The position numbers and the translations under genes were made by a program. This document shows, piece by piece, positions 39,046 through 45,099 of a stretch of DNA of 64,000 nt (position 1 is its first letter; each line of letters starts with the position of its first letter). The notes beneath the pieces were generated by a model, which had not been told where the DNA came from, did not search any database, and was given only the letters and a program-made list of their open reading frames with translations. The DNA is from Lama guanicoe (taxonomy: Eukaryota). Where the stretch lies: positions 17,363 through 81,362 of the forward strand of contig MU053802.1 in NCBI GenBank assembly GCA_013239625.1. Reading direction: 5' to 3'.

Positions 39046-39179
39046 GTGTGATGGCTGTGAGATGTTTCCTATCAATGGATCTCAATTCAAGTACTGTGAT
39101 GACTTTGATTTTTGTGAAATGTGTTTCAAAACTAGGAAACACAACACCAGGCATATGTTTGGCAGAACAAATGACCCAT
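39046..39179 (+). pseudogene. HERC2: HERC2-like ZZ zinc-finger exon (last HERC2 exon present)
   Basis: CDGCEMFPINGSQFKYCDDFDFCEMCFKTRKHNTRHMFGRTNDP; second CxxC collapsed by an in-frame deletion. Confidence 0.94.
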
Positions 39180-39519
39180 GTATGGTAAATGATTACGTTC
39201 TCTTTCCACAAAATTTATTAGTGAGATAATTATTGTGGAAACAAAGTTACTTAGTTTTGATCTTTAAAGCTTGTGCTTAAATGGTGAGCACTGTACTCTG
39301 TGCACAGTGAAACAGGAAAGCTGGTCCTACCCACCTGGTGAATTACTAGTTTTTTACGAGCAATGAGGGGGTCCCTGGAGCTAGAATAGTGGGGTTTGTT
39401 CACTTGTATTTCCATAGAAAAACAGTAAAAGGATCTCAAGAAACTAGTAAATATTTTCTTGGATGGGATGTGGAATTGGAGAGATGGAGAGGGAGTCTTT
39501 TTATTTGTGTGTCTTTTAT

Positions 39520-40165
39520 TATTTATTTTATCACTACGGCAGAATATAGATAACATAAAATTTGCCAGTTCAGTCACTTTTAAGTGTATAATTATGGGAA
39601 TTTGCACATTAACCCCACTATTTCTAAACTCTTCACCACTGCAAATTAGGAAGGGATCCATTAAGGAATAACTCCCCTTTCTTCCCTCTACCAACCCCTG
39701 GCAACCTCTAATCTGCTTTCATCTCTGAATTTGACAACCCTAAGTACCTCTTATAAGTGAAACCACTCAAAATTTTATTTTCTGTGTGTCTGAGTTATTT
39801 CAATCTGCATTGTGTTTCCAGGGTTCATCCATGTCATAGCATGTGTCAGAACTTCATTTCTTTTTGTGGCTGAGTAACATTTCATTGTGTGTATATACCA
39901 CATTCTGTTTATCCAGTCATCTATTATGGACATTTGGGTTGTTTGTACCTTTCAGCTCTTGTGAATAACATTGCTGTCAACATTGGTGTATGAATCTGTT
40001 TCAGTCCCTGTCTTCAAAACTAGGAGTGTAATTGCAGGGTCATTAGGTAGTTCTTTAACTTTGGGGAGGACTGCTAACATGTTTTTTATAGTGGCTGCAC
40101 CATTTAACATTTCTTTCAGCAATATGTGAGGGTTCCAGTTTCTCCACATCCTCACCAACATTTGT
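39520..40165 (-). mobile_element. Old L1MB-like 3' end
   Basis: 'acccctggcaacctctaatctgcttt', 'ggttcatccatgtcatagcatgtgtcagaacttcatt', 'gttccagtttctccacatcctcaccaaca'. Confidence 0.85.
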
Positions 40166-40209
40166 TTCTTTTCTCATCTCTTTTCTTTTCTTTCTTTCCT
40201 CCCTCTCCA

Positions 40210-42100: not shown

Positions 42101-43605
42101 TAACAAACAAGTTTAAACATAGTATTTAATAATAGCACTGATAATAGAAATCAAAATTAATCTTTTTTAAGAAGTGGTTATTATGTGCCGGGTTCTATTC
42201 TGTGTGTCTACTTGTGGTATCTCATTTAAACTTTGTGACAGACCTAAGGGACTGGGGTTAGTGTAAAAACACCTCTGCTGGAGGCAGGGAAACTAGGGCC
42301 CAGAGTGGCTGTCCTTATGATGCAGGGCTTTAGTCTTTTTACTGTTTATTTCTGAGTTGTTTGTATATCAAGGATCTCAGTTCTTTTCATATATATTTTT
42401 ATTTATTTATATTCCTTCCCAGTTTTCTTTTGTTTTTAACATGCAGAGATTTAAGCATACACCCCCCACCCCCACACCGATTATTTGAGATTTAGATTTC
42501 CAGTTGTTTGCTATTGCAAACAGTACCAGGTTATATATTGTTTCCTAACTGTCTTTGTGCACAGCATCTACTATTTCCTTCAGATATAATCCACACCCCC
42601 TTTTAAACTGAACAGAGTTGCTCCACATAATTGAGTTAACTGAATGTATTTTAAATTCTGATTAATGAGTTGTTTAGACAAGTTACCCCATTTGCCATGA
42701 AGATGTGGTCCTTTTACATGTTCAGCAGATGTTTATCAGTCATACACTCTGGGTCAGTTAAGGGCCTCGTGCTGTGAAGGAGGGACGGAGGCCGAGGTCT
42801 AAAAGCAGAGCTAACACAGGTGATGTGCACATGTAAGCGGGGGTGAAGACTTGAGATTTGCACTTTAGAAAGGCCACTGTAGCCATCTCACTGAAGAAAT
42901 ACAGAATTGCAGATGGGCACGGTAAAGGCAGAGCGAACTGTTAGGGATCTTTTGCAGTTGTCTGAGTGCGGCATGGGGTGACGGAGGCGGGAAGGAGAGG
43001 TGGTATCCGAGTGTTCTGCAGGAGGTGGGGTCAGCAAGGTGGGACTGTTACTCATGTGAGGTGGTCTGTGGATGAAAAGAGCTCTACTGTGACTCCCAGA
43101 GCCTTGATTCTGATTGACTCGGTGGGAGACAGTGGCATTCGCTGTGGGAGAATATAGAAGTGGAACTTCTATTTTAGGGGGAGTTGAACTTTGTTGTCTT
43201 TAGTTTGCAGAATCCGTGTGACATTCAGGTAGAGGTTGTACTCTCCACAAGAAGGGCGCTCGTCTCTTCATCGTGACTGAACTGTCAGTGCAGTGACTGC
43301 AGCAGATGTTAAGCTAGCTATCAATGCCAGAGCTGTTCTCAGTACTTTACACGTAGTAAAGCACTCAGCCTTCACCACAGCTGTTTGAGGTACATATTAT
43401 TATCATTATCAGGACATTAGGTGTGCAAGGCCACCCAGCTGGTGATGTGTGGAGCTGAAATTTCAAACTGTAGCAGCCTGGCTAAGAGTCTGTGCTCTTC
43501 ACTTTTGGACCAGTGCTGGTGTGTGTTCTGAAATAAGTCAGCTTGAGAAAGAGTACCATGGTGCTGAACAGTATGGTGAGAGTTCACTGGTTTACTTAAA
43601 AAAAA

Positions 43606-44487
43606 AACAAACAGGTATTCTGGGCCAGTGTTGGTTGACCAGGGTTTTATGCTTTGCCTTCTGGCTTTAGTTTGTGATTGAAAGTTTTGTTGATTGTAAG
43701 AAGAAAAGTCTTTCTCTTTTCTTAAGGAAAAAGTAACTCTTGTTAGTTAGCTAGCAAGTACTTTTGTGGACCAGAATGTTAATTTTCCATGTCTACCATG
43801 AAAAATCATGACCCTGGTCTCAGCCTACCTGCAAAATAGTTATTGATTGTTCATTTTGTGGCAGGCTTGCCTGGTCTAGGTTCTCTTGGGACTTTGTAAG
43901 AAGCATCCAGAGGAATACAGCAGCCTGTGAATTTATTTCCATGTATTGTGTGCTCAGCCTTTAATGACCTGTATCAGTGGCAAGCATCATTAGAACAAAT
44001 TTCTCACCTGCTTTGGAGGATGCTAGGGAGATTGATTGCTGTACACAACAAACAGGTATTCTGGGCCAGTGTTGGTTGACCAGGGTTTTATGCTTTGCCT
44101 TCTGGCTTTAGTTTGTGATTGAAAGTTTTGTTGATTGTAAGAAGAAAAGTCTTTCTCTTTTCTTAAGGAAAAAGTAACTCTTGTTAGTTAGCTAGCAAGT
44201 ACTTTTGTGGACCAGAATGTTAATTTTCCATGTCTACCATGAAAAATCATGACCCTGGTCTCAGCCTACCTGCAAAATAGTTATTGATTGTTCATTTTGT
44301 GGCAGGCTTGCCTGGTCTAGGTTCTCTTGGGACTTTGTAAGAAGCATCCAGAGGAATACAGCAGCCTGTGAATTTATTTCCATGTATTGTGTGCTCAGCC
44401 TTTAATGACCTGTATCAGTGGCAAGCATCATTAGAACAAATTTCTCACCTGCTTTGGAGGATGCTAGGGAGATTGATTGCTGTACAC
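43606..44487. repeat. 441-bp direct tandem duplication
   Basis: 43606-44046 and 44047-44487; no mismatch seen by eye. Confidence 0.97.
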
Positions 44488-44908
44488 CTGTCAGGTGTAA
44501 AGCAGAGCCTCAGCAGTGTTCCTTTGAATTGATTTCTAAAGAGCTGCCCCACTGGACAGGCCTGATGCAGGCATTCAGAAATTACTTTTGCAATTTACAG
44601 TTCTGAACTGATGAAAATCTCATATGTGAAAATGAGTATTAAAGTTGTTTCCATTGTTTTACAGAAAAATGTGTTTTAAGATTTTCTCTTAAAACAGATT
44701 TACAGATATTCACTCTAAGCACTACTGTATTCTATACCATTTAACGTACAACAGTTGTGTTGAGTATCATATTCTTGTTGGTAGTATTAAAGGTTTTTAA
44801 TATAATTGAACATCCTAAAGTTCTTAATTTAAAGAACCATCACATAGGTCAGAAGGTACAAACATTAGGATATGAATGCACCCTTTAAGCCTCACTGCCT
44901 TCTTGTAG

Positions 44909-45099
44909 GAGGAGAGACTTCAGCATGCAAACCTTCATCTGTTCAGCTTGCACCGTCATTTTCATTCCATGCTGCTGGCCTTCAGATGACTGCACAGATG
45001 CCTCATTCACAGCAGTACAGTGACTGTCACCAGCCAGACATAAGTGACTAACAGTTTCTGCCTTATCCTGATCAGATTCAGCAACCTCTAACTAACCAG
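44909..45099 (+). pseudogene. DYRK1A: DYRK1A-like exon A
   Basis: [38 protein letters not shown]...SD*Q...DQIQQPLTNQ; phase-1 acceptor, GTAAG donor. Confidence 0.95.

Follow-up and report, generated by a model that had tools for sequence, protein, structure and literature searches.

A probable decayed mosaic segmental duplication joining HERC2 and DYRK1A fragments in the genome of Lama guanicoe

Introduction

Partial copies of HERC2 are known from human 15q11-q13, where the consulted parts of the literature place HERC2 duplicons and HERC2P pseudogenes in segmental duplications and report that rearrangements of these duplicons can give fusion transcripts (PMC3171312, PMC2394762). Fusion genes of the HYDIN2 type arise by incomplete duplication, according to the sections available (PMC5345166), and readthrough fusions in segmental duplications are described in the consulted portion of another source (PMC6764479). 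For the alpaca, pseudogene-rich repetitive blocks are reported on chromosomes 11, 17, and 36 (PMC13751797), and an excerpt from another study assigns DYRK1A to alpaca chromosome 1 (PMC7288448). A literature search with most subscription journals outside its coverage returned no description of the HERC2-DYRK1A fusion presented here.

Results

Anatomy of the window

The analysed stretch, called the window, is the 64,000-nt segment C1709:17363-81362 of an assembly of 2.05 Gb in 55,231 contigs. Comparison with other contigs of the genome showed the intact HERC2 parent to lie in two parts, one at the end of C910 and one on C5022; the parent of the DYRK1A piece is on C4389. The features of the window are listed in Table 1.

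Table 1. Features of the HERC2-DYRK1A block in the window.
Feature	Position	Strand	Remark
GC-rich multi-copy block 5' of HERC2 fragment	8618..17509	.	matches on >15 contigs
Unprocessed HERC2 fragment (MIB-HERC2, UBA-like, CPH, ZZ)	17510..40208	+	colinear with parent
1.1-kb deletion site	23957..23959	+	parental positions skip from 472228 to 473327 in window and C3763
HERC2 CPH exon	36946..37114	+	stop and +1/-1 indels, all in common with C3763
HERC2 exon preceding ZZ	38824..38929	+	stop and 3-bp deletion in common with C3763
HERC2 ZZ exon	39046..39179	+	AG before; phase-1 donor GT at 39180
HERC2/DYRK1A junction	40208..40209	+	HERC2-intron pyrimidine microsatellite abuts DYRK1A intron (C4389:3109403)
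Unprocessed DYRK1A fragment	40209..58323	+	92% BLAST identity to parent C4389:3109403-3091641
Perfect 441-bp tandem duplication	43606..44487	+	one copy only in parent and C3763
DYRK1A exon A	44909..45099	+	AG at 44907-44908, phase-1 acceptor intact
DYRK1A exon B	51014..51131	+	2-bp deletion, also in C3763
DYRK1A exon C	53097..53284	+	1-bp deletion in common with C3763; stop in window only
DYRK1A exon D	56692..56839	+	stop and donor GT>GG, window only
Multi-copy tandem repeat, unit ~1.8 kb	58324..62454	.	terminates DYRK1A fragment

The HERC2 fragment was colinear with parental C910 (465764-488722) and C5022 at 84-88% BLAST identity, and has neither its own 5' end nor a promoter. In Pfam, ZZ scored above the curated cut-off on this fragment, and MIB_HERC2 and UBA_7 below it. 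The CPH label follows PF11515 on P0010/P0012, which we take to be the domain of that name. The 1.1-kb deletion takes out a whole HERC2 exon and the greater part of the one that follows it, and both exons are present in the parent only. Among the 11 HERC2 exons, 9 retain both AG and GT; the donor of the exon preceding ZZ was changed from GT to AT in the window copy only. C2563 was rejected as HERC2 parent, as its exons are broken and it matches over only 4.2 kb.

The ZZ exon matched the solved structure of the HERC2 ZZ (E=1.6e-21). It carries a 6-bp deletion within the finger and a G>T change at its last base, both also found in C3763. It has no frameshift and holds an internal in-frame ATG; a short frame leading from ZZ into DYRK1A could predate the G>T change, an observation that counts against regarding the locus as a dead mosaic.

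Neither the ATG exon nor the larger part of the kinase domain is included in the DYRK1A fragment, and the four coding exons A-D present in it are all broken. Exon A matched the solved structure of DYRK1A (E=1.8e-20), and its two lesions, TAA at 45049 and a 6-bp deletion, are confined to the window copy. The first-pass annotation had correctly named exon A as the next exon after ZZ, but the DYRK1A piece is larger than that exon and extends past exon D. The 441-bp tandem duplication is either very recent or an assembly artefact.

Part of the GC-rich block also precedes the HERC2 piece on C2563. Upstream of the HERC2 piece, CpG observed/expected peaked at about 0.42 in 2-kb bins, which is under CpG-island level. 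The distal repeat matched itself at 83% (58317-60561 vs 60132-62367) and has relatives on many contigs, one of them <10 kb from the end of the 25-Mb C2563. In the Pfam scan of 24 ORFs chosen from the 192 listed, four HERC2 matches and nothing else were found, so that within this sample neither the upstream multi-copy block nor the distal repeat showed a gene. An Atlas search with one ORF gave no usable match. Rfam gave two tRNA-like matches and nothing more, which were read as SINEs; the type of SINE appears camelid.

Junction and other copies

Alignment of the introns to both parents, which the first-pass annotation had proposed for mapping the breakpoint, placed it sharply between 40208 and 40209, and no microhomology was seen. 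Positions 39180-40195 match HERC2 intron, 13 bases of microsatellite follow, and 40209-44894 match DYRK1A intron. A third donor between ZZ and exon A was ruled out because these introns fill the interval, and homologous recombination because the two sides have no common sequence.

Among 40 candidates scored of 2,276, the same junction was found on two contigs, C1709 and C3763. C3763 is a paralogous contig, 94-96% identical to the window copy, and is colinear with 8.6-58.3 kb of the window at 91-96%. Segmental duplications are conventionally defined by >1 kb and >90% identity; the window against C3763 meets this definition, whereas the HERC2 part against its parent falls below it. The earlier view of a duplication hub with fragments fused in DNA is supported by this identical junction on two paralogs. 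A search for junction copies with fewer lesions or more kinase exons had also been proposed. On C3763, exon A is still open and the DYRK1A part extends further, into exons E-G, of which two are frameshifted.

The ZZ segment had six genome matches, parent included, and the ZZ copies on C2563, C8180, and C2417 run on in HERC2 past the junction point of the window. Non-parental contig matches were found for DYRK1A exon A on four contigs and for exon D on five.

A third HERC2-DYRK1A mosaic, with a different, upstream junction, was found on C9398. On this contig, RCC1-like exons of HERC2 lead to a junction near 39,770, which is followed by DYRK1A intron, exon A, and HERC2 again at 59,029; the DYRK1A intron is entered 18 kb farther upstream than in the window. 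In the HERC2 trees, C9398 joined both junction copies for 35985-36790 (support 0.99) and did not do so for 33900-35700. The DYRK1A tree was nearly star-like, with 15, 10, and 3 informative sites, and these trees are compatible with one capture as well as with two. Because of this upstream junction, that of the window may be a later internal deletion from a longer C9398-type join; this and an original capture point appear about equally probable.

Splice join and phase

The first-pass annotation had reported that the end of the ZZ exon and the start of exon A are both in phase 1, and its coordinates (39046-39179 and 44909) are right. It had also given G as the parental last base of ZZ, which the parent confirms; with T in its place, the ZZ-to-exon A join reads TGA, in both junction copies. 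The donor was described as intact. GT is indeed present at 39180, but the same G>T change removes the G at -1 and lowers the match to the donor consensus used for scoring, CAG/GTAAGT, from 7/9 to 6/9. The 5.7-kb interval between ZZ and exon A holds AATAAA three times, together with a donor that matches better, at 8/9. In the frame that continues into DYRK1A, the longest stretch open from an ATG has 39 codons and ends at the join. An open frame across the splice junction, the mark of a HYDIN2-type fusion, was not found, as TGA closes it in both copies.

Phase 1 was found in 6 of the 11 HERC2 donors examined, so that a co-directional break before exon A would match in phase about half the time, and the caution already voiced that chance easily yields such a match is well founded. 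On C9398, the last HERC2 exon ahead of the junction also appears to be phase 1, judged by homology to P0012. Two phase-1 junctions of two would occur by chance at about 0.3, and the C9398 exon, although the best point for a chimeric unit, would favour it only mildly. An open exon A on C3763 and a C9398 junction apparently after a phase-1 exon are further observations that do not sit easily with a dead mosaic.

Age, lesions, and selection

With 5 columns around gaps masked and all bins kept, including the outlier at 24.8-26.8 kb, the window differed from the parents by 0.101 in HERC2 (15,780 columns) and by 0.056 in DYRK1A (14,698 columns). These distances (10.1% vs 5.6%) put the age of the HERC2 piece at about 1.8 times that of the DYRK1A piece, in a comparison within one genome that presupposes comparable rates and scarce gene conversion. 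The bin 24.8-26.8 kb and C9398, which shifts place between segments, show signs of conversion or mosaicism, and conversion makes the clock less reliable. When other HERC2 paralogs served as outgroup, the HERC2 branch ancestral to both junction copies was 0.038 and 0.046 in two segments, and the DYRK1A internal branch was about 0.008.

Changes common to both copies were counted in the 11 HERC2 exons from 24365 on, the MIB-HERC2 exons being inspected only, and in the four DYRK1A exons. HERC2 had 45 synonymous, 88 nonsynonymous, and 5 nonsense changes in common (pN 0.074 for nonsynonymous and nonsense), and DYRK1A had 2, 10, and 0. In DYRK1A, pN was 0.020 and pS 0.016 for these common changes (small counts, 10 vs 2), and pN 0.028-0.034 and pS 0.023-0.031 for private ones. 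Shared to private counts were 93:50 in HERC2 vs 10:31 in DYRK1A (Fisher P=5e-6). No sign of purifying selection was seen in either part, and the coding constraint after fusion that marks the HYDIN2 type was not detected in DYRK1A with these small counts.

HERC2 lesions present in both copies comprise frameshifts in 7 of the 11 exons, four to five stops, one of which lies at an indel and could stem from the alignment, and one lost acceptor. Both copies also carry the 1.1-kb deletion, the ZZ deletion of 6 bp, and the G>T change at the join. If lesions arise at a clock-like rate, a capture earlier than every one of the 12 frameshifts and stops has a probability of about 1e-7; for a capture earlier than the five lesions in the exons from CPH up to ZZ, the value is about 1e-3. 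If the parent is constrained, shared nonsynonymous change falls on the branch of the duplicate. The shared pN of HERC2 against that of DYRK1A then suggests that about three quarters of the shared HERC2 decay is older than the DYRK1A copy, and most of the HERC2 decay probably predates the capture. HERC2 lesions older than the fusion, together with a lack of chimeric reads, had been named beforehand as a result that would speak against a chimeric relic, and the counts point to the first of these. The sole lesion in common with HERC2 paralogs lacking DYRK1A is a CpG stop in the CPH exon that could be recurrent; with one such lesion only, the order of events is statistical rather than directly shown.

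Truncated DYRK1A models in dromedary

Derived residues of the window copy recur in truncated DYRK1A models of Camelus dromedarius, in keeping with a camelid genome. The dromedary models of interest are XP_031296286, XP_031315340, XP_031315334, and XP_031302828. XP_031296286 has G>A, N>D, R>Q, V>A, and exon-D read-through in common with window-type DYRK1A copies; at the first of these sites the window has T. The model is open across exons A-D, and its start is not HERC2 sequence. Its exact counterpart was not found among the loci of this genome.

Discussion

It is likely that the locus is a decayed mosaic segmental duplication, in which the HERC2 part came first and the DYRK1A part later, no chimeric protein is encoded, and the phase match is due to chance. 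The block retains introns and is colinear with parental genomic DNA, its two parts come from separate donors (C910/C5022 and C4389) that meet at a sharp junction, and its frames are disabled without purifying selection, as expected of a mosaic duplication. An internal part of HERC2 would have been duplicated and then have drifted without constraint, as the relative ages indicate. A DYRK1A segment without its ATG exon would later have been joined downstream in the same orientation, in the order that the shared decay suggests. The junction itself is a blunt intron-intron join, for which end-joining or template switching may be the mechanism. A further round of copying of the fused block then gave C1709 and C3763, and in the window copy the tandem repeat ends the DYRK1A piece after exon D. 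Since the HERC2 piece would already have been decaying when DYRK1A arrived, the phase match looks like chance.

The first-pass annotation had suggested a relic of a chimeric coding unit. This suggestion was not borne out, as TGA closes the join in both copies and neither part carries a selection signal. On sequence grounds, the fused block is predicted to encode no chimeric protein, and it probably never encoded a selected one. Among the 158 ZZ-hit and 79 DYRK1A-hit proteins listed, an annotated HERC2-DYRK1A fusion protein was sought and not found, a weak negative given the crowding by multi-ZZ proteins. A short-lived coding chimera, in which the ATG of the ZZ exon replaced the DYRK1A start exon and the protein was selected for a time, is nevertheless compatible with a ZZ exon that has an in-frame deletion only and an internal ATG, with two known HERC2-to-DYRK1A junctions that both appear phase 1, and with the open dromedary model (P0025) and its common derived residues and read-through. 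We regard it as quite improbable: shared pN and pS in DYRK1A give no constraint, the frameshifts in exons B and C stand in both copies beside the TGA, chance alone would give the paired phase-1 junctions in about 30% of cases, and none of the four truncated dromedary RefSeq models begins with HERC2 sequence. There is a similarly slim chance of a camelid truncated-DYRK1A family, with one capture into a HERC2 duplicon, of which some copy is open and expressed via the ZZ-exon ATG or another first exon and makes a kinase-dead N-terminal DYRK1A. If this were true, such a product could tune a dosage-sensitive kinase, and the window would be a dead member of the family.

Transcription of the block today as non-coding readthrough, with ZZ spliced to exon A at a meaningful level, is unlikely, though less so than a coding chimera. 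The source would be, for example, the GC-rich block or an upstream LTR-like element, and the product would resemble a transcribed pseudogene. The AG and GT kept by most HERC2 exons, the intact acceptor of exon A, and the GC content of the upstream block would suit such transcription, and human fusion transcripts across duplication breakpoints are reported in the available parts of two sources (PMC5345166, PMC6764479). Splicing from ZZ would, however, have to use a donor without its -1 G, after an exon whose donor is AT, and to pass the AATAAA signals and the stronger donor in the interval; the upstream CpG value stays below CpG-island level. The share of the words of 38800-45200 was 0.06-0.26 in four recorded RNA runs and 0.21 in two presumed RNA runs, which reflects word content only and is not splicing evidence. 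Misassembly of collapsed paralogs is very improbable, even in a repeat-rich region of an assembly with this many contigs and with a perfect 441-bp tandem duplication nearby that looks assembly-made. The junction is identical and free of N on both contigs, which diverge by 4-6% over a length of about 50 kb, and the colinearity of C3763 makes an assembly error unlikely. In addition, 14 DNA runs from five studies hold 0.66-0.75 of the words of 38800-45200, which shows that both sides exist rather than that reads span them, and the run with the highest share may come from the sample that was assembled.

As a decayed mosaic duplication, the locus is a well-resolved case of duplication hubs stitching unlinked genes together, and it illustrates that splice-phase matches in duplication mosaics are cheap evidence. 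Beyond the parental loci, at least five HERC2 ZZ segments and four to five copies each of exons A and D of DYRK1A are present in the genome. Such copies can lead to errors in camelid gene annotation, variant calls, and copy-number analyses. Partial HERC2 duplications in camelids, apparently independent of human 15q11-q13, bear on the choice of duplication cores. The locus would gain much in importance if expression and constraint were found for a truncated copy of DYRK1A.

Compared with the human HERC2 duplicons, as far as the available text describes them, the window likewise holds a partial, intron-containing HERC2 copy inside a large segmental duplication, but its partner is DYRK1A. At a divergence of only about 0.10 from its camelid parent, the HERC2 piece is not expected to descend from the duplication in primates, and the camelid copies appear to have arisen independently of the human 15q family. 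The alpaca blocks, in the consulted parts of their description, resemble the window in having fragmented multi-copy gene pieces among satellite-like repeats (PMC13751797). Their pieces are those of NEK10, ATF5, FMN2-like, uS3m, ACTB, and ABHD17A, and the text and one supplement of that source mention HERC2 and DYRK1A zero times. According to the same source, camels have these blocks in reduced form or lack them, but dromedary does have truncated DYRK1A models. HYDIN2-type and readthrough fusions share with the window a promoterless internal fragment joined co-directionally to another duplicated segment, but the accessible sections report mapped start sites and breakpoint-spanning transcripts for them (PMC5345166, PMC6764479), whereas the window, known from DNA alone, has a frame closed at the join and both parts heavily broken. 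The HERC2-DYRK1A block is best regarded as a real but apparently dead mosaic duplication, of an already known kind.

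Flanking repeats and local changes

The features in and around the window are listed in the table. The GC-rich block upstream of the HERC2 fragment was found on more than 15 contigs, and part of it also stands before the HERC2 piece on contig C2563. The block may be a duplication core. Neither the block nor its two internal repeats had a match in Pfam or Atlas. The distal tandem repeat contains CTAT microsatellites and is possibly subtelomeric; its relatives on C2563 lie close to the end of that 25-Mb contig.

Features of the window and related contigs
Feature	Sequence	Position
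GC-rich multi-copy block	window	8618-17509
Gln/Glu-rich repeat in block	window	9386-9536
45-bp repeat in block	window	14975-15074
Donor GT>AT, first MIB-HERC2 exon	window	19764
Rfam tRNA matches	window	23613-23684, 33677-33748
Excess of private changes	window	24800-26799
441-bp tandem duplication	window	43606-44487
Tandem repeat, unit ~1.8 kb	window	58324-62454
Relatives of tandem repeat	C2563	25266403-25269829
Third HERC2-DYRK1A mosaic	C9398	38884-61436

In one HERC2 interval, private changes reached 6.7% in the window versus 0.6% in the paralogous contig C3763, therefore gene conversion or replacement by sequence of another paralog is suggested. The Rfam tRNA matches were read as tRNA-derived SINEs. 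The 441-bp duplication is perfect and is found neither in the parent nor in C3763; it is either very recent or an assembly artefact. The donor change of the first MIB-HERC2 exon was also specific to the window.

Other copies and related proteins

Search matches alone indicated additional partial copies of DYRK1A (C755, C1289, C4305 and C47593) and of HERC2 RCC1-like exons (C3631, C2725 and C4813), and C755 likewise crosses the window's DYRK1A-to-repeat boundary. The C9398 mosaic has a different junction, at ~39,770 and more upstream, and HERC2 sequence resumes at 59,029. A 3.7-kb deletion in its DYRK1A intron takes out the region of the window's breakpoint.

P0001, a 175-aa Logan protein from another sample, is a ZZ pseudo-exon with the 6-bp deletion seen in the window. 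Because its last codon is still Gly, a copy related to the window's may lack the G>T change. Four dromedary RefSeq models (P0017, P0019, P0025 and P0092) are truncated DYRK1A-like proteins. Exons A-D are all open in P0025, and three dromedary models terminate in read-through of the exon-D donor, which is also expected of the window copy.
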